A stretch of DNA of 64,000 nt from a virus: the IMG/VR virus record IMGVR_UViG_3300046459_000548, positions 28,200-92,199 of that record; one strand, 5' to 3'. Below are positions 1 to 51,105 of this stretch, in pieces. Positions within the stretch are counted from its first letter, which is position 1. Each line of letters begins with the position of its first letter. The translations under genes and the position numbers were made by a program. The notes beneath the pieces were generated by a model that saw only the letters and a program-made list of their open reading frames with translations, did not search any database and was not told the DNA's origin.

Positions 1-634
1 TCTCGAGGTGTACGTACTCCTCGGTGGTGGCCGGTCGCGCGCCAAGCACGTCATCCTGTGAGCGGGTCGGGTATCCCATCTCCTCCAGTAGGAGCGGCGA
101 TCCGCCCGGGATGAGCCTCCGGTCCTCGAGCCGCGTCCCGCGCGCCAGCTCGATCGGGTAGTACGAATGCACCAGTTCGGCTGGCTTGCCATCGAGGTAG
201 CCGATGCGGGACCGGCGCATCGCCGTCCCGTCCTCGTCTAGGCCGAGAGCGAGGCGGACTTGTTTCGGCGGTTTCACCTCGCCGACCTCGAGCATCTTGT
301 ACTTGCCGTGCTGCTGGTTCTTCGTGGCCTCGGTCAGCCACCGGTACGGCTGCCCCGGCTCGGAGGGGCGCAGGCTGTGTGCGGGGCTGATTGCCTGGGA
401 GCCTTCGTTGCGCACGAAGACGCCGACTCCAGTCTGGCCCTCGAGGAACCTTTCGTCTTTGAGGATCTGGAGGGCGCGCTGAATGGTCACGTTCGACGTT
501 TCGAACTGTTCCCTCAGCTTCTCGTTTGTGGGGACCCGGGCTCCAGGTTCCCAGTCGCCCGACATGATCAGCTTTCTGATCTCGGCGGCGATGCGCTCAC
601 CGAGGGGGCGCTTGTCCTCGTGCGGCTCGGGCAT
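1..634 (-). CDS. GntR-family (HutC/UTRA) transcriptional repressor, KorSA/TraR-like; 3' end runs off the window
   Basis: Not in the ORF track. Manual translation from CAT at 632-634: MPEPHEDKRPLGERIAAEIRKLIMSGDWEPGARVPTNEKLREQFETSNVTIQRALQILKDERFLEGQTGVGVFV (GntR wHTH), then ...ELVHSYYPIELARGTRLEDRRLIPGGSPLLLEEMGY (UTRA). Confidence 0.9.
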   Translation of the reverse strand, partial: MPEPHEDKRPLGERIAAEIRKLIMSGDWEPGARVPTNEKLREQFETSNVTIQRALQILKDERFLEGQTGVGVFVRNEGSQAISPAHSLRPSEPGQPYRWLTEATKNQQHGKYKMLEVGEVKPPKQVRLALGLDEDGTAMRRSRIGYLDGKPAELVHSYYPIELARGTRLEDRRLIPGGSPLLLEEMGYPTRSQDDVLGARPATTEEYVHLE

Positions 635-635
635 G

Positions 636-1166
636 TCAGTCGACCTCGATCTCGTAGTGGAGGCGGCGAGGCGCCTTCATGACCATGAACTGCACTTCGA
701 TGGGGCTCCCGTCTTCGGCGGTGGTCGTGCGTAGCAGCGTCAGGACACTCGAGCCCTCAGGGAGGGAGAGCGCGGTGCGCTCGAAGTCGTCCGCCTCCCG
801 GAACTCCAGATCCTCGGAGACGTGCCGGGCGTGGTAGCCGAGTTCGGCCAGCAGTGTGGGTGCGCCGCCTTTGATCTTCTTCTTCTCGAGGAGCGCTGTA
901 CCGCGCGCGATCTCGAGCGGGTAATACGAGTCGGCGAGTTCGATCGCTTCATCGTCGAGCAGGATGACCCGGCGGCGAACAGCGACCTTCTCGCCGGCTC
1001 CGAGAGAGAGGGTGGCGGCCACCTCTCGCGGCGGCACGACCTCGGCGACCTCGGTGAGTTGCTGACCGCCTCGTTGCCGCATCTCCTCACTCCAGGCGTC
1101 CGCTTGCCCCTGTTCGCGAGGCGTGACGTAGGCGAGTGAGTCATTCCGTCGCTGATTCTCGGCCAT
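636..1166 (-). CDS. Stand-alone UTRA domain protein (no HTH)
   Basis: ELADSYYPLEIARGTALLEKKKIKGGAPTLLAELGY aligns with the UTRA of the downstream GntR. RBS GGAGG upstream; ends 1 nt before the GntR start. Confidence 0.88.
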   Translation of the reverse strand: MAENQRRNDSLAYVTPREQGQADAWSEEMRQRGGQQLTEVAEVVPPREVAATLSLGAGEKVAVRRRVILLDDEAIELADSYYPLEIARGTALLEKKKIKGGAPTLLAELGYHARHVSEDLEFREADDFERTALSLPEGSSVLTLLRTTTAEDGSPIEVQFMVMKAPRRLHYEIEVD

Positions 1167-1211
1167 CTCTTGAGCCTCCCCTCCACTGATGATGCTCGTT
1201 CTGACCTCCCA

Positions 1212-1303
1212 ACCTTAAGCCCTTGATGATTACAGATGCCTGCACCCGCTTGGCCGAATCTGCGTCGCGAGGCTTGCTACGTTATGCATCAAGGCTTTAA
1301 GGT
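1212..1303. promoter_or_regulatory. Divergent promoters with an inverted 17-bp operator pair
   Basis: ACCTTAAGCCCTTGATG (1212-1228) and CATCAAGGCTTTAAGGT (1287-1303) are inverted copies (15/17), each containing TAAGGT. Rightward promoter TTGCTA(1274)-18 nt-TAAGGT(1298). Confidence 0.7.
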
Positions 1304-1338
1304 CGTTGACAGATGCGAAACCCGCGATCGGAGGCGCA

Positions 1339-1539
1339 ATGCTGCGAGTTCGGGACGTCGCGACGCACTTCCGAGTGCACCCCGCGACCGTCTATCGATG
1401 GATCCACCAGGGCTTTGTTCCTGCCTACAGGAACGGCCAGCCCTACCAGCCCGGAGACGGTGCCACCGGCACGCTCCGCATTCCCGAGTCCGTCCTGAAT
1501 TCGACGGACACCCCTCAGCCGTCCACGGAGGTGGCCTGA
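1339..1539 (+). CDS. Excisionase/Cro-like HTH (HTH_17/MerR-type) protein
   Basis: MLRVRDVATHFRVHPATVYRWIHQG; RBS GGAGG at 1330. Confidence 0.85.
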   Translation: MLRVRDVATHFRVHPATVYRWIHQGFVPAYRNGQPYQPGDGATGTLRIPESVLNSTDTPQPSTEVA

Positions 1540-1979
1540 TGTCCAGCATCACCACAACCCCCACCCAGGCCACCTCGATGTCGCCGGCCGACCGCATGGC
1601 CCACGACGACTCCTCCCACGTGACGTGGCGGGCCCGCGAGAAGTATCTGCGCGGCCTGAACGTCAACGGTCGTATCCGCACCGCAGGCGACCAGCTGCTC
1701 GCCGACATGGCCGGCCGGTGGGCGCTCATCGAGGTCACCGTCGAATACGTGTCCCCGGTCTCCCCGGACGGCAGCATCGTCCTCGTGGTCGCCGGACGCG
1801 ACCGGCAGGGTGAGGCCCTCGTTCAGATGGACGCCCAGGACCGGGCCGAAGCGCTCGACTGGATGGACCGGGACTACGCCTCCCTCCTCGGCAAGGCGAC
1901 CGTCCTGTACGGGCAGCCCGCACTCGACCTGCGGCGCGTCACCCTCGCCCAGCCGCAGAGCGTGAAGGCGGCGGCGTGA
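1539..1979 (+). CDS. Hypothetical protein
   Basis: TGATG coupling to the previous gene, GGAGG RBS, high GC3 frame. Confidence 0.75.
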   Translation: MSSITTTPTQATSMSPADRMAHDDSSHVTWRAREKYLRGLNVNGRIRTAGDQLLADMAGRWALIEVTVEYVSPVSPDGSIVLVVAGRDRQGEALVQMDAQDRAEALDWMDRDYASLLGKATVLYGQPALDLRRVTLAQPQSVKAAA

Positions 1980-2149
1980 TGGCCACGGCGACCCGTCCGG
2001 CGATGCCCGCCGAGTTCTCCGACTCGCTGGATCTCGCGATCTACCGCGAGACCAAGAACCAGGTGCCGGCCGACGAGCGCTCCACCTGCCCGCTGCACCT
2101 GAACTGGCGGGACCGTTGCTCCCAGCTGCACGTGGCGGGTGGTCGCTGA
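1979..2149 (+). CDS. Small hypothetical protein (CPLH...C...H motif)
   Basis: Manual translation MATATRPAMPAEFSDSLDLAIYRETKNQVPADERSTCPLHLNWRDRCSQLHVAGGR; TGATG-coupled at both ends. Confidence 0.65.
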   Translation: MATATRPAMPAEFSDSLDLAIYRETKNQVPADERSTCPLHLNWRDRCSQLHVAGGR

Positions 2150-2379
2150 TGGACCCCGCTCTGATCCGGGCCGTCGCCGCGCAGCTGACCCGCCTGTCAC
2201 TGCGTGAGCCGGGCGAGGCGACCTGCCGCATCATGCTGGGCGGTCTGCCGCTGGCCAGTGCTTTCGACTGCTGGCACAGCGTGGACTTGTCGGCTGCGGG
2301 ACTCCACCGGGCAGCCGTGCTCCTCGAAGTTCCGGGCGTGACACCCCGACTGGCGCCGGTCCTGCAGCTCCGGCGCTAG
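2149..2379 (+). CDS. Hypothetical protein
   Basis: TGATG-coupled start MDPALIRAV. Confidence 0.55.
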   Translation: MDPALIRAVAAQLTRLSLREPGEATCRIMLGGLPLASAFDCWHSVDLSAAGLHRAAVLLEVPGVTPRLAPVLQLRR

Positions 2380-2488
2380 ACCCCCAAGACCGCCGCGGCA
2401 GCGGTCCGACAATCCCCCCGTCCCGCTGCCGCGGCTTTCCACCCCGCACCACCCCTCATCCCGGCATGACCAACCGAGGAGATCAGCC

Positions 2489-2881
2489 ATGCCTTCTACC
2501 GACCAGGCCGTCCGCTCCAGCATCGAGGACGTCGACGATGCCGTGGGCAAACTGCGGATCGACTACCGTCGCGCAGGCTTCCAGGGCATCCACACCGGAG
2601 CCGTCCCGTTCGGCCGATTCGGCAACCTCGTCGGCTCCGAGGTCACGGCAGAGCAGCGCATCGACGTCGGCAACACCGGCGAGTACGTGTCCGTCCGCCA
2701 CACCTTCGTCGTCACCTGCACTGGCTTCGGCTGCACCGACCCCGTCGCCGAAGTCGCGACACGCAACCTGATCTTCGACTGTGACCACGGCGACATCACC
2801 GAAGAGGGTCGGCTCGCCGCCCGCAAGCAGGCCCAAGCCCACGCCGAGACGTGCCGCGCCCTGCCCCGCACCACCGCCTGA
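2489..2881 (+). CDS. Hypothetical protein with C-terminal Cys/His (CTGFGC...HAETC) motif
   Basis: RBS GAGGAG; high GC3 frame. Confidence 0.75.
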   Translation: MPSTDQAVRSSIEDVDDAVGKLRIDYRRAGFQGIHTGAVPFGRFGNLVGSEVTAEQRIDVGNTGEYVSVRHTFVVTCTGFGCTDPVAEVATRNLIFDCDHGDITEEGRLAARKQAQAHAETCRALPRTTA

Positions 2882-2929
2882 CCCCACCCCCCATCCCATT
2901 CCTGATTGACCACCTTGAAGGGCACCCCC

Positions 2930-3130
2930 ATGTCTCTGACTCTGATCACCTCCGCCCCGTCGTCGGATGCCGAGTACCGCACCGGCCTGATCTCCCGCTA
3001 CCTGACCGCCCGCAGCTCGCGGACACGGAAGGCGCTGCGGGCCGAGGCCGCGGCCTACGACCGGGCCAACAAGGACGCCCCGTCTCTGACGGATGAGCTG
3101 TTCGGCGCGAGCCTCGGCGACGTCGCCTGA
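2930..3130 (+). CDS. Small hypothetical protein
   Basis: GAAGGG RBS; high GC3 frame. Confidence 0.65.
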   Translation: MSLTLITSAPSSDAEYRTGLISRYLTARSSRTRKALRAEAAAYDRANKDAPSLTDELFGASLGDVA

Positions 3131-3234: not shown

Positions 3235-3447
3235 ATGAGCAGCACCGAGTCCGACTACTTCGAGATCGCCACCGACAAGGCCCTGTTCAAGAAGGACGGA
3301 GCTGCCCCCTTCGGCGCCCCGGCCGGCACCCGCGTCGAGTCGTTCAAGGAGACCGGCGACTGGGTCGACATCCACCTGTCCAGCGGCTACCAGATCAGCC
3401 TGCACGAGTCGCGGATCGCCTACATCCTCACCCGCAACGCCGCCTGA
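3235..3447 (+). CDS. Small hypothetical protein
   Basis: RBS GAGAGG; coupled to the next gene. Confidence 0.7.
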   Translation: MSSTESDYFEIATDKALFKKDGAAPFGAPAGTRVESFKETGDWVDIHLSSGYQISLHESRIAYILTRNAA

Positions 3448-3860
3448 TGGCCGACGTGGTGATCGTGTCGTTCGGCTTCCTGCACGATTCCGCCCCGGAT
3501 GCGGACGTGGTTCTGGATTTGCGGCGTGCGTTCCGTGACCCGCACGTCGACCCGCGCATGCGGGAGTTGACCGGCCGCGACCGGCTCGTCCAGCGGACCG
3601 TGCTCGGAACGCTCGGGGTTCGCCCCCTGCTGCGGGCCACCGTCCGGCAGGTCGCCGCCTACAGCCAGGGCCCGTCCGTCGACCGGATCGTCATCGGCTC
3701 CGGATGTGCGGGCGGCAGGCACCGGTCGGTGGTTGTCGCCGAACGGCTCGCCCGACGGCTCCGGCGCCGTGGCCACCGCGTCACCGTCACCCACCGCGAC
3801 CTGCACCAGCCCGTCGTGCAGCGCCCCAACACCACCACACCTCCCGAGAGGAGCGCCTGA
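3447..3860 (+). CDS. RapZ/YvcJ C-terminal domain protein
   Basis: VSFGFLH...ADVVLDLR...DP...LTGRD and GCAGGRHRSV...HRDL motifs typical of the RapZ CTD; no P-loop domain. Confidence 0.85.
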   Translation: MADVVIVSFGFLHDSAPDADVVLDLRRAFRDPHVDPRMRELTGRDRLVQRTVLGTLGVRPLLRATVRQVAAYSQGPSVDRIVIGSGCAGGRHRSVVVAERLARRLRRRGHRVTVTHRDLHQPVVQRPNTTTPPERSA

Positions 3861-14759: not shown

Positions 14760-15206
14760 GTGGCCGGCATCGTTTTCAACATCGCCCTCGGGCGGCTCGC
14801 CTACTACACGTCCCTGCCCGCCGCGAACGACGGCCTCGTCCTGATCGCCCTGGAAAGCAGCGGGCTGGAGACCGACGCCGTCCTGCGCGACAAGGACGAC
14901 TTCGCCGCAGTGGTCGCCGGTAGCACCAACGAGCAGGCCACCGTCGGACGCAAGCCGCTCACCGGCGTCACCGTCACCGTCGACGACACCAACGACCGCG
15001 TCGCGCTCGATGCCTCCGACGTCACCTGGTCATCGCCGACGGGCAACGCCATCGGTGCGGTGGTGATCTGCTACGACCCCGACACCACCGGCGGGACAGA
15101 CGCCGACCTGATCCCGCTCACCAAGCACGACCTGGCCTGGACCCCGGACGGCAACACCTTCAACCTGACCATCACGGACTTCGCCCGGGTCACCTCCGCC
15201 GCGTAA
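14760..15206 (+). CDS. Putative virion structural protein (small beta-rich)
   Basis: RBS GAGGAG; Thr/Asp/Gly-rich; first gene of the fibre module. Confidence 0.7.
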   Translation: MAGIVFNIALGRLAYYTSLPAANDGLVLIALESSGLETDAVLRDKDDFAAVVAGSTNEQATVGRKPLTGVTVTVDDTNDRVALDASDVTWSSPTGNAIGAVVICYDPDTTGGTDADLIPLTKHDLAWTPDGNTFNLTITDFARVTSAA

Positions 15207-15236
15207 GCAGTCCGGCGAAGGGAGCGGGAGGTCGCC

Positions 15237-16307
15237 GTGGCGAGCTTCACCGACGACTTTAATCGCGCCAACAGCACCGACCTGGGCGCCGGGTGGGTCG
15301 AGGTCTCAGGCGACTGGTCGATCGTCTCCAACCAGCTCTCGCCGGGCGCAGCGGGCGGCACGATCATTCTGCGCGCCGCCGGTGCGATGGCGGGCAACGA
15401 CAACTACGCGCAAGCCACGATCGCCGCCACCACCACAGCGAGCCAAGGCGTGTGGTGCCGCGGCAACAGCAACATCACCCAGGGCTACCTGTGGCGCAAC
15501 AACGGCACGACCTGGGACCTTTTCCAGGTCTTCGGAGGCTCTTTCACCAACATCGGCACCTATGCGGCAGCAGCCGTCGCAGGTGACGTCGCGAAAGTCC
15601 AGGCCGTCGGCACGACGATCAAAGGGTTCGTCAACGGTGTCCAGCGGGTCAGCGTCACGGACACCGCCGTCACGACGGGCACCAGCGTCGGTATCCGCTC
15701 GGACTCGGCTGGCGCGGTCCGCTACGACGATTTCGCCGCCGCGGACGTGACCGCCGGTGCGACCCTCGCCACCGCAGCCGCCACCGAGACCGCACAGCCG
15801 TTGACCGGCGCCAAGACGACAACGCTCAACCCCGCAGCCGCCACCCACACAGCGCAGCCCCTTACAGGCGCGAAGACCGGGACCCTCACCGCAGCCGCCA
15901 CGCCGGAGTCAGCGCAGCCACTTGCCGGCAGCAAGACGGTCACGCTCGGCACCGCACTTGAAACCGCCGCTACGCAAGCCCTCGCCGGAGCCAAGACGGC
16001 ACCGCTGTCTGCCGTGGCACAAACCGAGACCGCCCAGCCCCTCGCGGTCGTGACCAGCCGAAGTCTCGGCACAGCCATCGTCGTTGAGGCAGCCTGGCCG
16101 CTGTCGGGCGCCAAGAGCGCCGCCCTCGGCCCAGCGTTGGAGACCAGCATCGCGAGGCCACTCGTTACAGCCGGCGGACCCGACGTGGACATCGACGTCA
16201 CCGTCGGCAGTCCGTACAGCCCGTGGACGGCAGGCCAGCCCTACGCGTCCGCCTGGACTGTGCATGCGGGCCGGGCCAGCGACTGGGAGGTGGGCGCACC
16301 GTGCTGA
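15237..16307 (+). CDS. Putative fibre protein: lectin-like head plus 20-aa repeat shaft
   Basis: FTDDFNRANSTDLGAGW...YDDF beta-sandwich-like N-terminus, then about 7 repeats of AxxETAQPLxGAKTxTL. Confidence 0.75.
   Translation: MASFTDDFNRANSTDLGAGWVEVSGDWSIVSNQLSPGAAGGTIILRAAGAMAGNDNYAQATIAATTTASQGVWCRGNSNITQGYLWRNNGTTWDLFQVFGGSFTNIGTYAAAAVAGDVAKVQAVGTTIKGFVNGVQRVSVTDTAVTTGTSVGIRSDSAGAVRYDDFAAADVTAGATLATAAATETAQPLTGAKTTTLNPAAATHTAQPLTGAKTGTLTAAATPESAQPLAGSKTVTLGTALETAATQALAGAKTAPLSAVAQTETAQPLAVVTSRSLGTAIVVEAAWPLSGAKSAALGPALETSIARPLVTAGGPDVDIDVTVGSPYSPWTAGQPYASAWTVHAGRASDWEVGAPC
15762..16165 (+). repeat. About 7 degenerate 60-bp tandem repeats (coding)
   Basis: GCACAGCCG..GGCGCCAAGAC motif recurs every 60 nt. 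Confidence 0.8.
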
Positions 16308-16588
16308 TCCCCGCCACCTCCACTGAATACCTGCACGTGCCGGTCACCGCCCCATCCGGGACCGACCTCACCGGCGTCCCGGTACGGATCGCGGTGGTCG
16401 CCCACCGCGCTGACCCCGCCGACAGCGAGTGGCAGGCCGCGGACTGGGTGGACGGGGCGGCCCGGCTCCTCGTCGGCCCCGACAGCGGCCTGGTCCTCGC
16501 CACAGGCGACTACCGGGTGTGGATCAACATCGACCCGCCCGGAGCCGAGAACGTCGTCCGCAAAGCCGGAATCCTCAGCGTCACCTAG
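16301..16588 (+). CDS. Small Ig-like/BppU-like adaptor protein
   Basis: GGAGGT RBS, GTG start; GDYRVWINID...GILSVT. Confidence 0.7.
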   Translation: MLIPATSTEYLHVPVTAPSGTDLTGVPVRIAVVAHRADPADSEWQAADWVDGAARLLVGPDSGLVLATGDYRVWINIDPPGAENVVRKAGILSVT

Positions 16589-16603
16589 AAGGGGGCGAGT
16601 CCG

Positions 16604-16987
16604 ATCGCGGACAACCTGAGCAACACCGCCGAGAACCGCACGATGGACTGGATGATGGGCTCGACCACCACGGCACCCACCACCCCCCTCAAGGTCGCGC
16701 TCGTCACCGCAGCAGGCGACGATGCAACCGCGGGCACCGAAGTCACCGGCGGCTCCTACACCCGCAAGACCCTCACCGTCGCCGCTGCGTCAGGCGGCAG
16801 CGTTGCCAACAGTGCGGACCTCGACTGGACCGGCATGCCCGCGTGCACCATCGTCGGCTGGGAGATCTGGGACTCCGCAGGCACGCCCATCCGCTGGTGG
16901 TACGGGCCGCTCGACGCGAGCAAGACCCTCGCCGCCGGTGACGAGTTCAAGCTGACCGCCGGATCGCTCACGCTGTCGCTGAGCTGA
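16604..16987 (+). CDS. Phage fibre-associated structural protein; probable ATC start
   Basis: LKVALVTAAGDD...EVTGGSYTR...GWEIWDSAG...GPLDASKTLAAGDEF. RBS AGGGGG precedes in-frame ATC-GCG-GAC-AAC; first ATG is at 16643. Confidence 0.75.
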   Translation: MADNLSNTAENRTMDWMMGSTTTAPTTPLKVALVTAAGDDATAGTEVTGGSYTRKTLTVAAASGGSVANSADLDWTGMPACTIVGWEIWDSAGTPIRWWYGPLDASKTLAAGDEFKLTAGSLTLSLS

Positions 16988-16999
16988 CAGGAGGCGCGC

Positions 17000-18121
17000 G
17001 TGCCGTCCTTCAGTAGCCTCTCCGACAACTTCAACGACGGCGTGATCGGCCCGAACTGGGGAAACTCCTACGGCGGTGCCAACGAGACCGGCGGGCAGGC
17101 GCGCGTCCCCTGCGTGGCAGGCTCCTACGGCGGCTATCAGACCGCCTACTCGTGGACGCTCGCCGGCGCCACCATCTTCATGAAAGTCGTCACCGTGCCT
17201 GCCGCATCGACAGCGACGGACGCGTACTGCGGGGTCCTCGTCAACGCCCCCGATATCGCCACGAGCGGCGTCCGTATCGGGTTCACGATCAACGCCGTGA
17301 CGGGGATGCTGCGGATGCAGTCCGACACCGGCTACTACGACCCCACCGGCGTCGAGATCACCTACGATCCGGTGGCACACGCCTTCCTGAGGCTGTCCGA
17401 AGACGGCACCAACGTGCACTGGGACACCAGCCCCGACGGCACCACATGGACCAACCGGCGCACCCTCGCGACCCCGGCCTGGATTCCCGCCAGCATCGAC
17501 ACGTGCGCCCTCGACATGTCCGCACACCGCGACGCCGGAACCACCGACTATGCGGCCTACGACCTGTTCAACACCCTGTCCGACGGCGCCGTATACACCG
17601 GCAGCGGCAGCGGGACGGCCCAGTCGACGGTCACCGCCGCAGGTATCCACATCGGCGTCGGCAGCGGCAGCGGCAGCGCGCAGACCGCGTCCGCCGCCAG
17701 CGGACTCGCCGTCTATCACGGCTCGGCTATCGGCAGCGCCCAGACCGACGCGGTGGCCTCCGCCTCAGCCGGACCCGAATACCCGGAGGTGGCCGGATTG
17801 AGCGCGGGCGACTGGGACCTCTACATCGAGCAGGGCAGCACGTTCGTTCAGACGTACACGGTCACCGACCCCGGTTTCACCTGGGATGGCTGGGCTGCGC
17901 GTGCGCAGATCAGGGCGACAGCCGCGACGGACGCCGAACTCCTCCTCGATCTCACCTCGCACCTCACCGTCACCGGCCCTGCTATCCGCCTGGCGATCCC
18001 CGCATCCGTGACCGAGACCCTGACCCGTAACGGCCGCTGGGACCTGGAAGTTTTCCAGGGCGCCACGGTGGTGCGCCTCCTCAACGGGAAGGCGACCGTC
18101 TCCCCGGAGGTGACCCAGTGA
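17000..18121 (+). CDS. Putative fibre protein: lectin-like domain, Gly/Ser/Ala 20-aa repeats, C-terminal BppU-like domain
   Basis: DNFNDG...TSPDGTTW; GSGSGTAQS repeats; DLYIEQGSTF...ARAQIR...WDLEV...LLNGKATVSPEVT. Confidence 0.75.
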   Translation: MPSFSSLSDNFNDGVIGPNWGNSYGGANETGGQARVPCVAGSYGGYQTAYSWTLAGATIFMKVVTVPAASTATDAYCGVLVNAPDIATSGVRIGFTINAVTGMLRMQSDTGYYDPTGVEITYDPVAHAFLRLSEDGTNVHWDTSPDGTTWTNRRTLATPAWIPASIDTCALDMSAHRDAGTTDYAAYDLFNTLSDGAVYTGSGSGTAQSTVTAAGIHIGVGSGSGSAQTASAASGLAVYHGSAIGSAQTDAVASASAGPEYPEVAGLSAGDWDLYIEQGSTFVQTYTVTDPGFTWDGWAARAQIRATAATDAELLLDLTSHLTVTGPAIRLAIPASVTETLTRNGRWDLEVFQGATVVRLLNGKATVSPEVTQ

Positions 18122-21100
18122 AACTCGAGGTCACAGGCGAGCGGCCCGTCGACGCCATCAACGTCACCAGCGGCCAGCAGTCCACCGTCATCGACGTCAC
18201 TGCAGGAACCGTCACCTCCGTCAACGGCCGCACCGGCGCCGTCACCATCAGCTCCAGCGACGTCGGCGCCCCCGACTGGATCAACGTCGTGCAGCGGGGG
18301 GCAGTAGGCGACGGCATCGCCGACGACACGGCAGCCCTCCAGGCCGCCATCGACGCCTGCCAGCCCGGCGGAACTGTGTACCTGCCGCGCGGCGTCTACA
18401 AGACGACCGCCACGCTGGACCTGAAGAACGGCGTCACCCTGCGCGGCTCCCACGCCAACCTGATGGTCGGGCCCGGCATGGGCGATGCCGACTACCCGTG
18501 CTACATCCAGGCAGCCGGCCCGTTCACCGGCACCTCGGTGATCCAGATCATCGGTGACGCCGACGGCATCCATCCGGCCATCTCCGGTGAGCAGCGCATC
18601 CTCAACCTGATGATCGACGGCTCCCAGCTCGGCGGATCGTCGGTCGACGGTCTGTTCGCCCGCGGTAACGTACAGAACGTCGTCCTCGACAACGTGACGA
18701 TCCGGCAGATGCCGAACAACGGGATCGTCACCGCGAGCCGCGGCGACGGCACGTTCCCGTACTCGTGGCGCCTCCACCATGTCATGGTCGACAACTGCCA
18801 CGCCAACGGCATTCTCTTCACCGGCAATACGGATATCACGCTCGACGACGTGCAGGTCATCGGCTGCTGGGCGCAAGGCTTCGTCCTCACCAACTGCACG
18901 AACGCCCAGCTCATTGCCTGCCGGGCCGAATGGATGGGCAGCCACGGCTACCACCTGACCGGCGCTTGGGGAGACTGGGCCGGATCCGGCGGCATGCAGA
19001 TGACCGGCTGCTCCACCGACCGCAACGGCCAGCACGGCGTCCTCGTCGACGCCACCGGCAACACTCCGATCCTCATCTCCAGCCTCCAGACCCGCCGCGA
19101 CGGCCGCAACGGCGGCGCCGGCGGCGGTGGATACGCCGGCCTGGCCGTCATTGGCGCCACCGTGCCCGTCACCATCGACGGCATCAACTGCTACCCCGGC
19201 GTCGACGACGGAGGCGCTTCCATCAACTCGCCGCAGTACGGGGCGCGCCTGTCCGGTTCCTCCACGGTCACGCTCGACAACGCGCTCCTGCACGCCGACA
19301 CCGCGGGCCTCCTCGATGACGGCACCAACACCCTGATCTCCCTCGGCTCCAACATCGTCACCGCTGCGGGTGCCACCACCTCCACGGCCCGCACCCTACG
19401 GCCGCGCATCCTCGACTGGGTCAACGTCAAGCAGCGAGGCGCCAAAGGCGACGGCACCACCGACGACACTGCCGTCATCCAGGCGGCCCTCACCGCGGCG
19501 CAGCCCGGCGACACGATCTACCTGCCGGCCGGTACCTACCGGACGAGCGCGCCCCTCACGGTGCCGCCCGGCGTCACGCTCCGCGGCTCGCATGGCGATC
19601 ACTTCGACAACCTCACCGGCTGGACGCAGGTCAACGCCCGCATCAAGCCGCTCGCGACGTTCTCCGGGGTGGCCTGCATCCTCATCCTGGACGCGCCCCT
19701 CGGCGGGTATGCGGCCAAGTCGTGCGAGCAGCGACTCCTGGACCTCACCCTCGACGGCACCGCCCTGCCCGGCGGCAACACGGTCGACGGCATTCAGGCG
19801 CAGGGCACCATCCGGGGGATGATCTACGAGAACCTGTCGATCAAGAAGTTCGGCGGGCACGCGATCTACTTCACCTACAACTTCTCGGCCCCGCCAGGCC
19901 TCCCGCAAGCCCCGTATTCGAACCGGCTGCGCCGCATCGTCGCCTCCGACTGCGGCGGCAACACGTACTCCTTCAACAACATGACCGACTCGACGCTCAT
20001 GGACGTCGAGTCGATCGGCAGTGCGGGCTACGGCTTCTTCTTGTCCGGCTGCGGCAACAGCACCCTCATCGCCTGCCGTGCCGAATGGAATCTCCGCGGC
20101 TTCCACATCGTGCCCGGCAACGCGCAGCTGTCCCTGATCGGCTGCTCGACGGACCGCAACACCCAGAACGGCATGCTGATCACCGGTGGCAGCGCGGGTG
20201 CCACGGTGGCCATCACCAACGCACGGTTGAACCGGGATGGCCGCAACGGCAACAGCGGCGGCGGAGGCTACGCAGGCCTCACCGTCGACACCTGCCCCGC
20301 CATGGTCGTCGCCACCGACATCAACGTCCTCACCGGCGTCGACGACGACGGCAGCGGAACCCGCAGCCCCCAGTACGGCGTCAACGTCCTCGGCTCCGCC
20401 TACGTTGCTGTTACCAGCGGCATCCTCAACGCGGCCACCACCGGATTCCGGGACGGCGGCACCAACACCACACTGCTGCGCGGCCCCAACGTTGGCGAAC
20501 TCGTCGGCAACCCCGCGTCGCCCAGCTCGACCACGTCCTACGGGCTGCGCTCCACCCCGACCGCAGCCCAGTTCATCGACAGCTCGGCCGTCGCGCACAA
20601 CCTCATCCGGCCCTCCGCGCCGCTGCCCGTGGACCACGGCTTCCTCGCCTGGGCATACGACCCTTCACCCGCCGGAACCTTCACGGTCTTCACTGGCGGC
20701 GTCATCCAGCTCGTCCGCATCCCCATCCGGGCGACCCGCACCATCACCAACATCTGCCTATACATCGGTACCGCAGGCAACACCCTCACCGCAGGCGCCA
20801 GCTGGGCAGGCCTCTATGACTCCACTGGAGCCCGCCTCGGCCAAACCGCTGACCAGGCCGCCGCGTGGATCAGCACCGGCCTCAAGACCATGGCCATCGC
20901 GGGCGGCCCGGTCACCTTGAACGAGGGCTACTACTGGGTTGCCTGCGTGTCCACCGGCACCACCATCCCCGCCCTCCTGCGGGCATCCGGTGTCGGCGGA
21001 GGCCCTATCAACGTCGGGCTCAGCGCGTCGAACACCAGGTTCGGAACGTTCGGCACCAGCCAGACGACGCTGCCGACGACGATCACGCCCGGCTCCATCG

Positions 21101-21138
21101 GACAGGCCAACAACGCCTACTGGGCGGCCCTGAGCTAA
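18118..21138 (+). CDS. Tailspike/depolymerase with two tandem pectate-lyase-like beta-helix domains
   Basis: VTSVNGRTGAV; WINVVQRGAVGDGIADDTAALQAAI (18277) and WVNVKQRGAKGDGTTDDTAVIQAAL (19417). Confidence 0.88.
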   Translation: MKLEVTGERPVDAINVTSGQQSTVIDVTAGTVTSVNGRTGAVTISSSDVGAPDWINVVQRGAVGDGIADDTAALQAAIDACQPGGTVYLPRGVYKTTATLDLKNGVTLRGSHANLMVGPGMGDADYPCYIQAAGPFTGTSVIQIIGDADGIHPAISGEQRILNLMIDGSQLGGSSVDGLFARGNVQNVVLDNVTIRQMPNNGIVTASRGDGTFPYSWRLHHVMVDNCHANGILFTGNTDITLDDVQVIGCWAQGFVLTNCTNAQLIACRAEWMGSHGYHLTGAWGDWAGSGGMQMTGCSTDRNGQHGVLVDATGNTPILISSLQTRRDGRNGGAGGGGYAGLAVIGATVPVTIDGINCYPGVDDGGASINSPQYGARLSGSSTVTLDNALLHADTAGLLDDGTNTLISLGSNIVTAAGATTSTARTLRPRILDWVNVKQRGAKGDGTTDDTAVIQAALTAAQPGDTIYLPAGTYRTSAPLTVPPGVTLRGSHGDHFDNLTGWTQVNARIKPLATFSGVACILILDAPLGGYAAKSCEQRLLDLTLDGTALPGGNTVDGIQAQGTIRGMIYENLSIKKFGGHAIYFTYNFSAPPGLPQAPYSNRLRRIVASDCGGNTYSFNNMTDSTLMDVESIGSAGYGFFLSGCGNSTLIACRAEWNLRGFHIVPGNAQLSLIGCSTDRNTQNGMLITGGSAGATVAITNARLNRDGRNGNSGGGGYAGLTVDTCPAMVVATDINVLTGVDDDGSGTRSPQYGVNVLGSAYVAVTSGILNAATTGFRDGGTNTTLLRGPNVGELVGNPASPSSTTSYGLRSTPTAAQFIDSSAVAHNLIRPSAPLPVDHGFLAWAYDPSPAGTFTVFTGGVIQLVRIPIRATRTITNICLYIGTAGNTLTAGASWAGLYDSTGARLGQTADQAAAWISTGLKTMAIAGGPVTLNEGYYWVACVSTGTTIPALLRASGVGGGPINVGLSASNTRFGTFGTSQTTLPTTITPGSIGQANNAYWAALS

Positions 21139-21146: not shown

Positions 21147-21854
21147 ATGGCCGACGACCTTCTCGTCATCATCCCGACCCGCGGCAGGCCCGGCGCCGTG
21201 CCGGAGATCGTGCAGACGTGGGACGACACCGGGGCCACGGCCGACCTGCTGTTCGCGGTCGACACCGACGATCCGGAGCTCGCCGCGTACAAGAAGCACG
21301 CCGCCGCGCTCAAGGGTGACAGGCGGGTGCGGTTCACGTTCGGCAAGCGGCGCCGCATGGTCGGCACGCTCAACACGCAGGCAGTGAAGGCGGCGAAGAG
21401 CTATCGGTTCCTCGCCTTCCTCGGAGACGACCATCGGCCCCGGCCAGCCGACCGTCCGTGGGACGCCCGCTTCCGCGAGTGCCTGTCGGGCGGGCCCGGC
21501 ATCGTCTACGGCAACGACCTGCTGCAGGGCGAGAACATGCCGACGGCCGTCGCGATGACGTCGGACATCGTGGCCACACTGGACTACATGGCGCCGCCCG
21601 CGATGGTGCATCTCTGCGTCGACCTGGTCTGGAAGGACTGGGGGACCGGCATGCAGCGGATCACCTACCTCGACGACGTAATCATCGAGCACCTGCACCC
21701 GGCGAACGGCAAGGCCGAGGTCGACGCGGGCTACGAAGAGGTCAACAGCCCCGAGCAGGTGTCCAGCGACTCAGCCGCCTACTACGACTACCGCGACAAC
21801 GGCGGCCTCGAAGCCGACCTGGAGAAGCTGCGAGCGCTCGTCGCGTCCGCCTGA
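21147..21854 (+). CDS. GT-A fold (GT2-like) glycosyltransferase
   Basis: VIIPTRGRP...VDTDD...FLGDDH...IEHLHP; RBS AAGGAG. Confidence 0.8.
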   Translation: MADDLLVIIPTRGRPGAVPEIVQTWDDTGATADLLFAVDTDDPELAAYKKHAAALKGDRRVRFTFGKRRRMVGTLNTQAVKAAKSYRFLAFLGDDHRPRPADRPWDARFRECLSGGPGIVYGNDLLQGENMPTAVAMTSDIVATLDYMAPPAMVHLCVDLVWKDWGTGMQRITYLDDVIIEHLHPANGKAEVDAGYEEVNSPEQVSSDSAAYYDYRDNGGLEADLEKLRALVASA

Positions 21855-21894
21855 CCCACAACACCCATACGCCTGCGGCTGATCCCCGCAGGAA

Positions 21895-21928
21895 GGAAGC
21901 CCCGGCGGCCCCGAGCTCCGGGGCTTCC
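21895..21928 (+). terminator. Hairpin
   Basis: GGAAGCCCCGG...CCGGGGCTTCC. Confidence 0.6.
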
Positions 21929-21947
21929 GCATATCTCGGGAGCCCCA

Positions 21948-33354: not shown

Positions 33355-34368
33355 GTGCGTGTTCTGGCAATGCTTCACGCCTACCCCCCGGCGCACAATG
33401 CGGGGGCCGAATGGGCAGCTCACGGGCTGCTGAGAGATTTGGCGGCCCGCGGCCATCAGGTCGATGTGCTGTTGTCCCAGTCAGCCGGCGTGACTGTCGG
33501 CTACGAACTCGACGGGGTCAGGGTTCATCCGTACCGCGGCAAGGGCGATCCGATGCCCTGGATGCGCGGCGACGGCCGGGCGCACGTGGTGGTGACTCAC
33601 CTGGAGAACACGCCGCGCGCGTCGATCCTCGCCGACTTGAACGCGATTCCGGTCGTGCACCTGCTGCACAACACGTTCTCCTTCACCAAGGCGTGGCTGG
33701 TCAAGGGCCTTCCGTCGCTGGTGGTGTACAACACGGCGTGGATGCGTGCCGACGTGGAGGCGTGGTGGGAGGCGGACCGGGGCGACCGGCCGATGCCTCC
33801 CGGCATGGTGGTCCGGCCCCCGGTGTACGTCGACGATTACCGGGCCACGCCGGGAAGCTGCGTCACCCTGATCAACCTGACGGAAGAGAAGGGCGCCAAG
33901 GTCTTCTACGGACTCGCCGAGCGGATGCCGCGCCGCAAATTTCTGGGCGTGGTCGGCGGCTATGGGCAGCAGATCGTCCGCGACGACCTCCCGAACGTGG
34001 AAATAGTCGAGCACACTCCTGGCCACGACATGGCCAAGCAGGTGTACGGGCGAACGAAAGTGCTGCTGGTGCCGTCGGTGTACGAGTCCTACGGGCGCGT
34101 CGCCGTGGAGGCCATGTGCTCGGGCATCCCCGTTGTCGCGCACCCCACGCCGGGGCTACTGGAGTCGTGCAGCGACGCCGGGGTCTTCTGTGACCGGGAC
34201 GACCTGGACGCGTGGGAGGCCGCAGTGAAGCGCCTCAACTCGCCGAAAATCTATCCGGAGGCATCGAAGGCCGCAGCGGCGCGAGCTGCTGAACTCGACC
34301 CGCGGACCCAACTCGATGCCTGGTGCACGGCGGTGGAGGGGGTGGCTGCACGTGGACGCCCTCGCTGA
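33355..34368 (+). CDS. GT4 (GT-B) glycosyltransferase 1
   Basis: HAYPPAHNAGAE, KG, PSVYESYGRVAVEAMCSGIPV (EX7E). Confidence 0.92.
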   Translation: MRVLAMLHAYPPAHNAGAEWAAHGLLRDLAARGHQVDVLLSQSAGVTVGYELDGVRVHPYRGKGDPMPWMRGDGRAHVVVTHLENTPRASILADLNAIPVVHLLHNTFSFTKAWLVKGLPSLVVYNTAWMRADVEAWWEADRGDRPMPPGMVVRPPVYVDDYRATPGSCVTLINLTEEKGAKVFYGLAERMPRRKFLGVVGGYGQQIVRDDLPNVEIVEHTPGHDMAKQVYGRTKVLLVPSVYESYGRVAVEAMCSGIPVVAHPTPGLLESCSDAGVFCDRDDLDAWEAAVKRLNSPKIYPEASKAAAARAAELDPRTQLDAWCTAVEGVAARGRPR

Positions 34369-34981
34369 CCTGACCGCCCTGGCGGCCCGTCTCGGACGGC
34401 CACTCCTGTCTGCGGAAGCCGACCGGGCCAGCGTCCTGCTGGACGACGCATCCGCGATGGTGCGCTCCTATACCGGGCAGACGTTCGCCCGGACCGACAA
34501 CGACACGATTGTGGTCCGCGCCCAGCAGGGCGAGATCCGGCTTCCCCAGCGCCCCGTCCGCGACGTGACGGTCGTGATCGCTGTCGGCGCGGGCGGCGCC
34601 CCGGACCTTCCGGTCGTCGGCTGGCAGTGGGACGGCCTGGACATCATCCGTACCTGCCAGGAATCGCCGGTGATCAACCTGCCGGAACGCTGGCACGAGG
34701 AAGACATTGCGGCCTATCCGGGCACCTATCGGGTGACCTACAGCCACGGCGGCACTGTCCCGCCCGACGTGGTGGCCGTTGTGGCGCGCATGGTGCTGCG
34801 GACGCTGACCGCGCCGACGATGGCGGGCGGCGTGACGGGCGAGACCCTCGGCCCGTACAGCTACCGCACGGACGGGTCCGGCGTGGGCACGGGCGTGGTC
34901 ATGACGGACGACGACCGCAAGACGCTGGCCCTGGCCGGCTACCGGCGTAAGGCGGCCATGTCGATGGTGAGGTTCCGGTGA
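34352..34981 (+). CDS. Head-to-tail adaptor
   Basis: LAARLGR...LLDDASAMVRSY...YSHG...ETLGPYSY. Confidence 0.85.
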   Translation: MDALADLTALAARLGRPLLSAEADRASVLLDDASAMVRSYTGQTFARTDNDTIVVRAQQGEIRLPQRPVRDVTVVIAVGAGGAPDLPVVGWQWDGLDIIRTCQESPVINLPERWHEEDIAAYPGTYRVTYSHGGTVPPDVVAVVARMVLRTLTAPTMAGGVTGETLGPYSYRTDGSGVGTGVVMTDDDRKTLALAGYRRKAAMSMVRFR

Positions 34982-35985
34982 CCGGGCTGAATGTGGTGGC
35001 GCGGCTGCACGCCTATCCGCCGGACCACAATGCGGGCGCTGAGTGGATGGTCCACGAGATGCTGCGCGCCCTCGTGCAGCGCGGACACCGGGCGACGGTG
35101 TGGCTGTCGCAGTGGGCGGAAACCCGCGAGCCGTATGACGTGGACGGTGTTCACGTGATGCCGGACGGGTCCGGCGGGAATTTCGCTCTGGCGGCGGCCA
35201 GGGCGGATGCGCTGGTCAGTCATCTGGAGAGCGTGCCGTATGCGGCAGCCTTGGCTCGCGGCCACGGCGTCCCCTTGATCGTGGTGTGCCACAACACGTT
35301 CGACCTGACATGGCAGCCGATGAGGGAGGGGTCGACGGCGCTCGCGGTCGCCAACTCGCAGTGGATGCTCACCGAGGCCGAGGCTTTCTTCGAGGGCCGC
35401 ACGTGCGGGCCGGACCGGTGGCTGACGGTACGGCCGCCCGTACACGCTGCCGAGTACCAGACACGCCCCGGCGACTGCATCACGCTGATCAACTGCACGA
35501 TGACCAAGGGGGCGGGGGTTCTGGCCGAGCTCGCGGAACGCATGCCGGACCGCAAGTTCCTGGCGGTGCGCGGCGGATACGGTGAGCAGCAGCCGCCCGA
35601 CCTGCCGAACGTCGCCGTCCTGGACCACGTCCCGGGCCGTGCCATGCGGGATGAGGTGTATGCCCGCACCCGGATCCTGCTGATGCCGTCGGACTACGAA
35701 TCGTGGGGCCGTGTAGGCGTGGAGGCCGTGGCCTCCGGTATCCCCGTCATCGCACACCCCACCGAAGGCCTCACGGAATCCCTCGGCCCAGCGGGCACCT
35801 TCTGTGATCGCGACAACGTGGACGTGTGGCAGAAGGCAATCGAGATGCTCGACGACCCGGCCGTATACCGTGCCGCATCCCGCCGGGCCAAGGCCCGCTC
35901 CAAAGCCCTGGATCCGGGCGCAGACCTTGCGGCGTGGTGCACGGCCGTCGAGGAGGTGTGCAGTGAGGAACCTGCCGAACGGTGA
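34978..35985 (+). CDS. GT4 (GT-B) glycosyltransferase 2, paralogue of 33355
   Basis: HAYPPDHNAGAE, PSDYESWGRVGVEAVASGIPV. Confidence 0.92.
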   Translation: MTGLNVVARLHAYPPDHNAGAEWMVHEMLRALVQRGHRATVWLSQWAETREPYDVDGVHVMPDGSGGNFALAAARADALVSHLESVPYAAALARGHGVPLIVVCHNTFDLTWQPMREGSTALAVANSQWMLTEAEAFFEGRTCGPDRWLTVRPPVHAAEYQTRPGDCITLINCTMTKGAGVLAELAERMPDRKFLAVRGGYGEQQPPDLPNVAVLDHVPGRAMRDEVYARTRILLMPSDYESWGRVGVEAVASGIPVIAHPTEGLTESLGPAGTFCDRDNVDVWQKAIEMLDDPAVYRAASRRAKARSKALDPGADLAAWCTAVEEVCSEEPAER

Positions 35986-47219: not shown

Positions 47220-47234
47220 CCTGAAAGGGGCAGC

Positions 47235-48742: not shown

Positions 48743-48744
48743 CC

Positions 48745-49521: not shown

Positions 49522-49540
49522 GCCCAGAAACGAGACTCCC

Positions 49541-49906
49541 ATGAAGATCTTCGGTAGAGACCCCGTGCTGTTCCTGAACAGCCTGTCCGCCATCCTCGGC
49601 CTCGTCGTCACCTTCAACGTCGGCCTCACCGAGGACCAGGCCGGCTGGGTCGTCGCGGGCGTGTCCGCGGTTCTCGGCGCGATCGCCGCGGCGCTGACCC
49701 GGCCGATCGCCGTGCAGGCGTTCACCACGCTCGTCGCCACCGTCGCCTCCGCCGTGGCCGCGTTCGGCTACAACGTGGCGCCAACTACCACGGCCGCCAT
49801 CAACGGCCTCGTTCTCGCCGTCATCATGTTCATCACCCGCGGCCAGGTCTCCCCGGCCAGCCCGACCGCGCCCGCCTCGCAGCCCGCGAAGCCGAGCAGC
49901 GTCTGA
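49541..49906 (+). CDS. Holin
   Basis: IFGRDP, 4 TM segments, RGQVSP; follows the endolysin. Confidence 0.8.
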   Translation: MKIFGRDPVLFLNSLSAILGLVVTFNVGLTEDQAGWVVAGVSAVLGAIAAALTRPIAVQAFTTLVATVASAVAAFGYNVAPTTTAAINGLVLAVIMFITRGQVSPASPTAPASQPAKPSSV

Positions 49907-49919
49907 TCGGAGCACCACC

Positions 49920-50270
49920 GTGGCCGACGAGCCGATGACCCTCGGCGAGGTCGCCAGACGCCTCGAGGCCATTCATGCCGACCTCAAAGAGGATCTCCGG
50001 GAGTACGGGGCCCGGCTCGACAAAAAGGTCAGCGTCGAGCGGTACGAGCTCGAGCGGCGTGCCGCCGACGAGGTGCACCGGCAAGTGATCGAGCGGGTCG
50101 CAGCCATCGAAGCAGGCCGCCAGCAGGAGCAGCGGGAAGCCGAAGCGGACCGGCGGAAACGGCAGGACGAACGACGCTCCGACAGGAGGCTCGTGTTCTC
50201 TTGTCTGGCAGCGCCGATCCTCCTCCTGCTCCTGCAGGCGTATTTGGCGGCGAGAGGAGCAGGTTCGTGA
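49920..50270 (+). CDS. Lysis-cassette coiled-coil membrane protein
   Basis: [10 protein letters not shown]..., C-terminal TM. Confidence 0.75.
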
Positions 50271-50935
50271 AGGGCCACCGGAGTCGAGAGCAGATACAGC
50301 ACCGACGGGACATCACCTACGGCGTGCTGGTCCTGTTCGGCGTCGTCCTGTTCACGCTGCTCGTTCTCTGGCTGCAGGAACTCACACACGACTTGCGGAC
50401 CGCCAACGACGCCCGCGACGCGCTGTCTCGACAGGTCCAGCAACTCGGAGAGAAGCCCGTCGCGGGACCGCCCGGATCCCGCGGCGACCCCGGACAGTCC
50501 GTCACCGGGCCCCAAGGCCCGCAGGGTATTCAGGGCGAGCCCGGCCCGACCGGGCCCCTCGGTCCAGTCGGACCCTCGGGCAGCCCCGGCAAGAATGGCA
50601 TCAACGGATCCAACGGCAGCCCAGGCGTGGGCGTCATCGGCCCAACTGGCGTCGCTGGCAGCAACGGTGCAGCGGGGCAGCAAGGCCCCCAAGGCGAACC
50701 CGGGCCGGTCGGCCCCACCGGACCGCAGGGTCCAGCCGGCGCCGACGGCAAGGACGGAACCGACGGCAAGAACGGGACGGACGGCCAGACCTGCCCGGAC
50801 GGGTACAGTCTCCAGGCCCCCGCCTACGACCCGGACGCTCTCGTCTGCCGTAGAGACGGAGCCCCGCAACCCTCGCAGCAGAAGAGCGGGTTGCTCGGCA
50901 TGGGCCTCGACCCGAACCGCCGCCAGTACATGTAG
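50267..50935 (+). CDS. Membrane-anchored collagen-like protein
   Basis: [14 protein letters not shown], Gly-X-Y repeats, CPDGY...LVC. Confidence 0.82.
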
Positions 50936-50943
50936 GAGCACGC

Positions 50944-51105
50944 ATGCCCGACCCGATCCCGCGGACCCCTCGCCGCGACGACACCGCGGCCGACACCCGG
51001 TCGCTCGAGCAGCTCGGCCGCATCGACCCGCAGCCAATACCGGCTCCGTCGATCCGGCCGTTCCTCGAACCCGACCTGCCGCCGGCGCCGGTCGACGACG
51101 AATGA
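50944..51105 (+). CDS. Small Pro-rich hypothetical protein
   Basis: AGGAG RBS; MPDPIPRTPRRDDTAADTRSLEQLG; ends before the terminator. Confidence 0.55.
   Translation: MPDPIPRTPRRDDTAADTRSLEQLGRIDPQPIPAPSIRPFLEPDLPPAPVDDE

Follow-up and report, generated by a model that had tools for sequence, protein, structure and literature searches.

A putative hypha-to-hypha transfer module in the genome of a probable temperate, chromosome-integrating Streptomyces siphovirus

The window analysed here covers the final 64 kb of a virus record 92,199 bp in length (G000), and coordinates are given as positions in this window (w) unless referred to the contig. An integrase gene with an attP, a lysogeny switch, genes for replication and recombination, a transfer module, and a complete operon for virion and lysis proteins are all carried by a single molecule of ~92 kb. 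The transfer module (~w1–11.1 kb) is placed between the early and late genes; outside the window, the record encodes a tyrosine integrase, a repressor, an antirepressor, DnaB, a loader, a beta clamp, and RecET. Completeness of the record was estimated at 100% (CheckV), and its ends overlap by 129 bp at 99.2% identity. A promoter and terminator consensus scan of this GC-rich DNA gave nothing informative.

The module opens with a KorA-like GntR/UTRA repressor gene on the minus strand (w2..634, cut by the window start; full gene at contig 28069-28833; Pfam GntR 5.7e-16, UTRA 6e-10), which is divergent from a plus-strand transfer operon. Its product is 27% identical to pIJ101 KorA (E 2e-11) and 25% identical to pZL12.80, and a UTRA-only paralogue without an HTH is encoded on the same strand (w636..1082; Pfam UTRA 1.4e-19). 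A repeat search of the divergent intergenic region identified a pair of 17-nt inverted repeats (w1212..1303; 88% complementary) that may serve as the GntR operator. The transfer operon begins with small leader ORFs (w1539..4093, plus strand; GC3 gene calls), one of which encodes a 137-aa RapZ_C-like protein (w3447-3860, plus strand; Pfam 8.8e-28; phrog_18111), followed by a gene for a 371-aa SpdB-family membrane protein with ~4 TM segments (w4103..5218, plus strand). The C-terminus of the latter aligns to the C-terminus of pIJ101 SpdB (BLASTP, E 3e-6) and the protein scores 0.95 to SpdB_N/HTH_SpdB_C clusters by language-model features (Atlas); together with the hydrophobic segments, these matches describe the SpdB architecture of an N-terminal multi-pass membrane domain and an HTH_SpdB_C domain. 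The SpdB-like protein is 44-75% conserved across 15 genomic loci.

Three further core genes (62, 415, and 115 aa; w5408..7355, plus strand) are kept in three other phages (G002-G004, below) as well as at 23-24 of 24 genomic loci, and have no family in Pfam, PHROG, or NCBIfam. An earlier note on this DNA labeled the product of w5713-6960 TraA-like, a label that could not be confirmed, as searches returned no family match in any library, these three included. Downstream of the ATPase gene discussed below, three small membrane proteins of 75, 163, and 83 aa (w10007..11112, plus strand; starts at w10007, w10316, and w10861), each with 1-2 hydrophobic segments, are Spd-like by position; the first is conserved in 23 loci and the second is 31% identical to pZL12.70c. 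The same note's description of a GntR-regulated transfer operon with SpdB-like and Spd-like membrane genes is borne out by the Pfam matches, the KorA and SpdB alignments, and the TM segments.

The module also encodes an 827-aa candidate TraB-like dsDNA translocase of the FtsK/TcpA fold (w7510..9993, plus strand), assigned from its Walker motifs, profile, and fold. It carries a Walker A motif (GTTGSGKT, aa 446-453) and a Walker B motif (DEF, aa 549-551), of which G446/K452 and D549/E550 are invariant in 17 homologues. Its best profile and fold matches are TcpA of Clostridium perfringens pCW3 (6o1w; profile match 8.9e-5) and the FtsK motor, to which the AF2 model, itself moderate only (mean pLDDT 56), was matched by Foldseek at 1e-7 and 4e-6, respectively, with a probability of 1.00 to both. 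The R...AG...Q.P motif region is shared with TcpA and the FtsK motor along with Walker A and B; however, TcpA is only ~14% identical to the ATPase and partners a T4SS-like apparatus that is absent from G000, and both the first 300 aa of the ATPase and its wHTH-like C-terminus are specific to the Streptomyces family. That C-terminal end is predicted to form a three-helix, wHTH-like structure (aa 765-803, pLDDT 71-78), and the protein aligns weakly to the C-terminus of pIJ101 Tra (E 0.049). No match to Pfam FtsK_SpoIIIE (PF01580) was found on the whole record even at E<=10, the ATPase had no Pfam match and none to plasmid_TraB (NF041214) or any other NCBIfam at E<=0.1, and its profile comparison with pZL12.71c and pIJ101 Tra was not significant. 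By sequence models, it is thus not a canonical TraB: the Walker motifs noted when the gene was first called traB are present, together with an FtsK/TcpA fold and a predicted wHTH-like end, but the canonical TraB and FtsK models do not recognise it. As with canonical Streptomyces TraB, the gene lies in an operon context that includes spd genes and a Kor repressor of the GntR type. No TRS/clt-like cluster emerged from exact 6-8-mer clusters over the record, from repeats near the 3' end of this gene, or from 8-mers common to 23 loci, these searches returning only generic GC-rich words.

Two small minus-strand genes, one of them DUF6221/phrog_6326, part the transfer operon from the late region (w11126..11741; gene calls, PHROG). 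They are followed on the plus strand by genes for an HNH endonuclease, a conserved phage protein (phrog_1467), a fibre-like module, and a 1006-aa beta-helix depolymerase (w12380..21138; PHROG and Pfam, with matches to HNH_3, Pect-lyase, Beta_helix, and End_N_terminal), and then by a glycosyltransferase, an NAD epimerase, small ORFs, a second HNH, and a 200-aa gene before TerL (w21147..25834, plus strand). The head module encodes TerL, portal, protease, scaffold, and major capsid protein (w26315..33287, plus strand; PHROGs 9, 104, 193, 1793, and 10), with a LAGLIDADG insert in TerL (LAGLIDADG_3, aa 399-445). Downstream lie a GT4, a head-tail adaptor, another GT4, neck genes, a tail terminator, and a major tail protein (w33439..38051, plus strand), then a 1483-aa tape measure and distal tail and tip proteins (w39156..47846, plus strand; phrog_4197, 16363, 1887, and 16452), and a lysis region with a peptidase, an Amidase_2 endolysin, small ORFs, and a collagen-repeat protein (w47909..50935, plus strand). 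The full head-tail-lysis operon described in the earlier note is confirmed, from TerL through the tip proteins to the lysin. With TerL, portal, protease, MCP, tail tube, TMP, lysin, integrase, and repressor all encoded, and no sheath gene seen in G000, the record has the features of a temperate HK97-fold siphovirus (Caudoviricetes). An accessory region beyond the lysis genes (w53706..59419) encodes a small serine resolvase, an IS256/Mutator transposase (minus strand), and a Ku homologue (Pfam Resolvase 6e-43, Transposase_mut 1e-65, and Ku 1.4e-41).

The earlier note had reported no integrase, att site, or rep gene between the two modules and had proposed extending the contig in search of integrase/att or rep/par genes. 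The former observation holds: in w11-26 kb, that is, between the transfer module and TerL, no integrase-, att-, or rep-like features were found, and the DUF6221, HNH, fibre/depolymerase, glycosyltransferase, epimerase, and second HNH genes are located there. The extension located the sole integrase and attP of the record outside the window, at contig 1590-3025, where they enclose both the transfer and late modules; no plasmid partition genes (ParA/ParB; AAA_31, ParB_N) were detected on the whole record. The attP core is 47 bp long, lies 64 bp beyond the int stop, and is present as an intact attP rather than as attL/attR. In at least five Streptomyces genomes, the 3' end of a HAD hydrolase gene bears a site with 94-98% identity to this core; in three further genomes, the identity is 87-88%. 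A tRNA-type att was considered and rejected, as no tRNA is encoded in the window or the remainder of the record and the attB locus has no Rfam match. The record ends were also considered as attL/attR and rejected, with an intact attP 1.5 kb inside and a small GntR-HTH ORF spanning the end junction.

Besides G000, three IMG/VR phages and four prophages in genomic sequence have the six-gene core upstream of the terminase, with position and orientation kept, such that the order GntR, tra, terminase occurs in at least eight independent phage or prophage genomes (G000 included) with at least three unrelated head modules. In G002, G003, and G004, the core is conserved at 50-75% identity while TerL, portal, MCP, and TMP are their own; CheckV completeness is 100% for G004 and 99% for G003. 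In the four genomic loci (L020, L026, L031, and L038), TerL and portal are encoded 5-9 kb downstream of the core on the same strand. Phage-linked TraBs are spread over at least three clades of the TraB tree (a quick IQ-TREE run). The linkage of traB homologues to the head module, which the earlier note had singled out as a check, is thus found repeatedly where phage late operons are concerned, but the heads are often not that of G000. Because the same core recurs in the same position and orientation with at least three unrelated heads, the joining of module and phage is not a matter of chance. The module evolves under purifying selection, with dN/dS between phage-linked copies of 0.09-0.37. 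The core and ATPase are absent from 50,697 records of cultured phages.

The module also has homology to the transfer regions found on large Streptomyces plasmids, with full-length homologues on eight plasmids of 150-290 kb and distant homologues on ~90 more, including pSLE1. The 288-kb plasmid of Streptomyces sp. CdTB01 and the 290-kb plasmid of S. violaceusniger Tu 4113 have the same core with GntR upstream, and ATPase homologues of this type are 65-71% identical in amino acid sequence to that of G000. Unlike G000, these uncharacterised plasmids, annotated as hypothetical, have no virion genes nearby, and just beyond the module they encode a second, canonical FtsK translocase. Since the module of the CdTB01 plasmid adjoins this second FtsK, the homologue of the 827-aa protein may not be the main pump there. 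Similarity extends to the kil-kor and tra-spd regions of pIJ101 and pSVH1, where a GntR repressor (KorA/TraR) is divergent from an operon encoding SpdB, small membrane proteins, and an FtsK-like translocase that carries an HTH at its C-terminus. In contrast to those plasmids, the ATPase of G000 is missed by the FtsK_SpoIIIE and plasmid_TraB models, three extra core genes without a known family are present, and no clt repeats were found.

Among the actinomycete elements studied so far, only pZL12, which lives as a plasmid, is known to combine virion and transfer genes. A 2010 paper reportedly describes virions and plaques formed by pZL12/phage ZL12, and the tra locus of pZL12 has been reported as needed for conjugal transfer. 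The precedent named in the earlier note is real: pZL12/phage ZL12 (GQ919031) has a ~90 kb genome with a virion operon and a tra locus on one replicon, a GntR gene divergent from the tra locus, an FtsK-like ATPase as its largest tra gene (likewise without a Pfam match), and the same GntR-tra-terminase order as G000. However, pZL12 has ParA/ParB and a plasmid life, whereas G000 lacks ParA/ParB and has int and attP. Moreover, only nine weak tblastn matches were found among ~125 genes, including GntR (25%) and one membrane protein (31%), and heads and ATPases are not detectably orthologous. Membership of G000 in a pZL12 family was rejected on these comparisons. The idea of a pZL12-type "conjugative phage" is thus already known; the integrative version in G000 is new.

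AICEs such as pSAM2 and SLP1 combine a tyrosine integrase and att with replication genes, an FtsK-like tra gene, spd, and a GntR kor (PMC2440964; PMC3218068). Like them, G000 joins an integrase with att, replication genes, and an FtsK-like tra gene in one excisable element; its replication genes are phage-type (DnaB, loader, clamp) as opposed to the RepSA/RepAM of AICEs. AICEs are ~9-24 kb in size, mostly target tRNA genes, and are without virion genes, whereas G000, at 92 kb, encodes a whole phage and has its target site at the end of a HAD hydrolase gene (3' side).

On balance, the evidence tilts toward a joint reading in which a temperate Streptomyces siphovirus that integrates into the chromosome stably includes a plasmid-type kil-kor/tra-spd module, and in which that module is a transfer route. 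In a lysogen, the operon would be held off by the KorA-like GntR repressor; derepression and excision to a circular form would activate it. The FtsK/TcpA-like hexameric pump would bind a putative clt-like site via its C-terminal wHTH and drive the phage genome, as double-stranded DNA, into an adjacent hypha, and SpdB and the small membrane proteins would take the genome across cross-walls. The proposed pump and Spd steps would therefore provide a contact-dependent, receptor-independent route besides virions, between mycelia, within a mycelium, or both. Several phages with different heads carry the intact module, so these phages may also spread from hypha to hypha without particles. A broader proposition, the chances of which fall just short of even, is that Streptomyces harbours integrative "conjugative prophages" as an unrecognised class, AICE-phage hybrids in which the kil-kor/TraB-SpdB genes form a stable core block flanked by early and late genes, heads are swapped, and a receptor-independent hyphal or cross-wall route bypasses adsorption-level resistance.

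It is also conceivable, if unlikely, that the module is functional but serves the phage otherwise than by moving the phage genome, for example by excluding incoming plasmids or phages or by reshaping envelope or cross-walls in the course of infection. Neither PHROG nor NCBIfam offers a family for the core proteins, no clt was found, and the ATPase is far from proven TraBs, all of which would suit such a role, as would the peptidoglycan binding and pore formation attributed to Spd proteins (PMC4447253). Against this, the full kil-kor/tra-spd architecture with a predicted DNA-binding C-terminal end matches transfer loci, and the same module is located within transfer regions of large plasmids. 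We regard as quite unlikely a conjugative plasmid or AICE holding a defective or domesticated prophage that yields no infectious virions. While Int, replication genes, and tra satisfy the three-module logic of AICEs (PMC3218068) and the ATPase occurs in no cultured phage, the late operon is complete, uninterrupted, and of strong coding signal, the completeness estimates noted above (G000, G003, and G004) point to whole phages, and G000 lacks ParA/ParB and far exceeds AICE size. It is improbable that the module is passenger DNA from plasmids with no phage role: Streptomyces phages and plasmids swap genes, the same core is found on plasmids, and G000 bears an IS and other accessory genes, but position and orientation are kept across at least eight phage or prophage genomes whose heads differ, the core is intact in all six genes with dN/dS in the range given, and 10 kb of useless DNA would be costly under capsid size limits. 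An assembly chimera of plasmid and phage, suggested by the record being a single contig, is effectively refuted, since seven assemblies made independently show the same junction order, isolate contigs of 63-383 kb among them.

Phages and conjugative elements are reviewed as alternative transfer strategies with differing costs and host ranges (PMC12282955). Here, the pairing of phage and transfer genes is extended to integrating prophages, with a different, uncharacterised translocase family that also occurs on large plasmids. If the module works as proposed, it could allow spread within a mycelium and from strain to strain that needs neither particles nor receptors, would bear on how Streptomyces phage resistance, lysogeny, and gene flow are viewed, and would make it tractable to test why a virus keeps a second transmission route; if a class of conjugative prophages exists, the line between phage and conjugative element would be blurred. 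The ATPase family itself forms 115 clusters at 90% identity, and this widespread group, whose members are named "hypothetical", can thereby be named as a likely DNA pump of plasmids and phages.

The joining of a transfer module to phage genes in this record is real and recurrent, and the evidence for this comes from several independent sources. Homologs of the 827-aa ATPase of the module were detected in four other IMG/VR contigs (71-84% identity), and the six-gene transfer core to which it belongs is present, at 50-75% identity, in the phage records G003 (61.8 kb, 99% complete) and G004 (54.4 kb, 100% complete) and in the provirus G002 (70 kb). These three each encode their own integrase, repressor, terminase, portal, capsid, and tape measure proteins, and each displays the order GntR, transfer core, fiber genes where present, and terminase on a single strand; in G002, phage genes border the module on both sides. 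The portals of G004 and G002 belong to PHROG families other than that of the record under study, and the G003 portal is only 27% identical to it. Among species-representative genomes, 24 carry the core, and in 4 of these (loci L020, L026, L031, and L038) TerL and portal genes follow the core on the same strand at a distance of 5-9 kb; they are of the G004 type in L020 and L026, of the G002 type in L038, and of another type in L031. Linkage of traB and terminase in related elements, put forward in the earlier note as a check, is therefore seen in G002, G003, G004, and these four loci, often with heads that differ from that of the present phage. The other core-bearing genomes among the 24 have no hallmark gene within 10 kb, and several of these cores come from plasmid records or from 110-200 kb contigs. 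Full-length homologs were also detected by tblastn on eight plasmids of 150-290 kb, along with distant homologs (24-27%) on about 90 more Streptomyces and Kitasatospora plasmids, including pSLE1. Strains of S. mirabilis encode a protein with 83-85% identity, and the homologs form 115 clusters in all. None of 50,697 cultured phage records yielded a match. In a quick maximum-likelihood tree, the phage-linked copies fall in at least three clades, separate from those of plasmid records, and four core genes show dN/dS ratios of 0.09-0.37 when phage-linked copies are compared. What is directly observed here is thus gene content, homology, linkage, and selection. Given the recurrence, gene order, tree, and selection evidence, it is unlikely that the module is an assembly chimera, a recent accident, or a passenger in decay.

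A small serine resolvase (189 aa; window positions 53706-54275) has conserved counterparts in G004 (75%) and G002 (46%), and may resolve dimers or act as an invertase.

The module itself (window positions 1 to 11.1 kb) opens with a GntR repressor with a UTRA domain (27% identity to KorA of plasmid pIJ101, E 2e-11) and a UTRA-only paralog, both on the minus strand, and a 17-nt inverted repeat pair (1212-1303) is located in the divergent intergenic region. The plus-strand operon encodes small proteins and then a 371-aa SpdB-like protein with about four membrane segments, the C-terminus of which aligns with pIJ101 SpdB (E 3e-6) and whose nearest Atlas clusters bear SpdB_N/HTH_SpdB_C (score 0.95). 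Three conserved proteins of 62, 415, and 115 aa that follow it matched no known family, and three small membrane proteins are encoded 3' of the ATPase gene. The leader of the operon (3447-3860) encodes a 137-aa protein whose match to RapZ is limited to the C-terminal domain (PapZ_C 8.8e-28; phrog_18111) and that is conserved at 57-59% in G004 and L026. The module has the kor/tra/spd layout typical of Streptomyces, as in pIJ101 and pSVH1, with a very divergent translocase at its center. The 827-aa ATPase had no match in Pfam, PHROG, or NCBIfam; a profile of 17 of its homologs matches the pCW3 FtsK-like coupling protein TcpA (8.9e-5) across the region of the Walker A, Walker B, and arginine/glutamine motifs. 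Its AlphaFold model has a mean pLDDT of 56 (70-88 in the motor region), and Foldseek pairs it best with TcpA (1e-7) and with FtsK motor domains (4e-6), at a probability of 1.00 throughout. Three helices make up the C-terminal 60 residues, which hardly vary across the family; no clt-like repeat was found.

The earlier note had described a full head-tail-lysis operon downstream of the module, and PHROG and Pfam scans of window positions 12-51 kb bear this out. TerL (26315-28978) is unusually long at 887 aa because of a LAGLIDADG homing-endonuclease domain (aa 399-447), the placement of which between the ATPase and nuclease parts suggests an intein. The scans further identified portal, protease, scaffold, and HK97-type capsid proteins, a tail terminator, a major tail protein, a 1483-aa tape measure, tip proteins, a peptidase and an Amidase_2 lysin, a collagen-repeat protein, and HNH endonucleases. 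No sheath gene was seen in these scans of the late region, and the tail is therefore of the siphovirus type; the late operon looks complete. Upstream of the terminase, away from the tail tip genes, are a fiber-like module and a 1006-aa depolymerase with a pectate-lyase (beta-helix) fold (14760-21138), followed by a glycosyltransferase and an NAD epimerase (21147-23263). These two enzymes, together with two GT4 glycosyltransferases on either side of the head-tail adaptor (33439-35985), suggest virion glycosylation. Part of the 14760-21138 stretch has 84% DNA identity to an 87.8-kb Streptomyces plasmid (NZ_CP109440.1).

The sequence is a single virus record of 92,199 bp, of which the window covers bases 28200-92199; genes were called by third-position GC, and GC content is 66-70% all along, with the modules joined without a compositional break. 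IMG/VR labels its ends 'linear' and CheckV completeness is 100%. The first and last 129 bp are 99.2% identical (the sole mismatch is base 3), and an 88-aa GntR-HTH open reading frame (window positions 63745-63999, continuing past the contig junction) crosses the joined ends intact. We take the genome to be about 92,070 bp long and either a circle or circularly permuted. The 88-aa winged-helix protein has no effector domain, and G002, G003, and five genomic loci encode relatives with 34-44% identity upstream of the module.

Extension of the analysis beyond the window, as the earlier note had proposed, located an integrase and att site in contig positions 1-28 kb. A 441-aa tyrosine recombinase is encoded on the minus strand (contig 1700-3025; Phage_integrase 23 bits, below the Pfam cut-off; NCBIfam tyrosine-recombinase subfamily 1.6e-9), and 64 bp past its stop codon is a 47-bp stretch (contig 1590-1636) that constitutes an attP/attB core. 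Five Streptomyces genomes contain a site 94-98% identical to this stretch and three others a site 87-88% identical, with identity beginning and ending abruptly at the borders of the 47 bp. In the hosts, the 3' end and hairpin of a gene for a HAD hydrolase, which has a TetR gene as its neighbor, extend into the site. Because attP is intact and far inside the record, the sequenced molecule was the excised or virion form rather than a prophage trimmed from a chromosome. Repeats of TGGGAGAT close to attP may be arm sites. The same 28 kb encode an XRE-type repressor and P22-type antirepressor, a beta clamp, a YqaJ exonuclease, RecT, an HNH endonuclease, a DnaA/DnaC-like loader, DnaB, and an ASCH protein. 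Partition genes, also sought by this extension, were not recovered, as a domain search found no ParA (AAA_31) or ParB_N domain on the contig. Short direct repeats (CTCCGGA and GAGCAGGG) are clustered at contig positions of about 18000-18500, within a gene adjoining the DnaC-like loader, and may constitute an iteron-type origin.

The closest precedent is the plasmid-phage pZL12 ('Streptomyces phage ZL12', GQ919031), which has the same gene order: GntR (pZL12.80), small genes,.73c,.72c, the FtsK-like.71c, and the membrane protein.70c, then terminase and portal. Unlike the present phage, pZL12 carries ParA/ParB, and homology between the two is marginal (25% for GntR, 31% for one membrane protein), with no significant similarity between their ATPases. 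Moreover, pZL12.71c also has no Pfam match and barely touches the plasmid_TraB model, and failure to match these models is therefore no argument against a role in transfer. Virions and plaques of pZL12 were reportedly obtained in the original study. No account of an integrating prophage bearing a module of this kind came up in full-text literature searches.

In the best-supported interpretation, this is a temperate phage that retains a second, AICE-like route of spread, for which we infer the regulation, the form of the substrate, the clt site, and transfer itself. Following excision of the phage genome and relief of repression by the KorA-like GntR protein, the FtsK-like ring would drive this genome, as circular dsDNA, into adjacent hyphae, and SpdB and the small membrane proteins would spread it across cross-walls. 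On the CdTB01 plasmid (NZ_CP013744.1, 189855-192251), a canonical 'DNA translocase FtsK' gene directly follows the module. The 827-aa protein may thus have only an accessory ATPase role on that plasmid, and large plasmids may pair two different translocases.

The accessory region of the window contains an IS256/Mutator-family transposase, inserted among its genes on the minus strand (55175-56428), and a homolog of the Ku70/80 beta-barrel (58127-59419); Ku genes also occur in mycobacteriophages Corndog and Omega.
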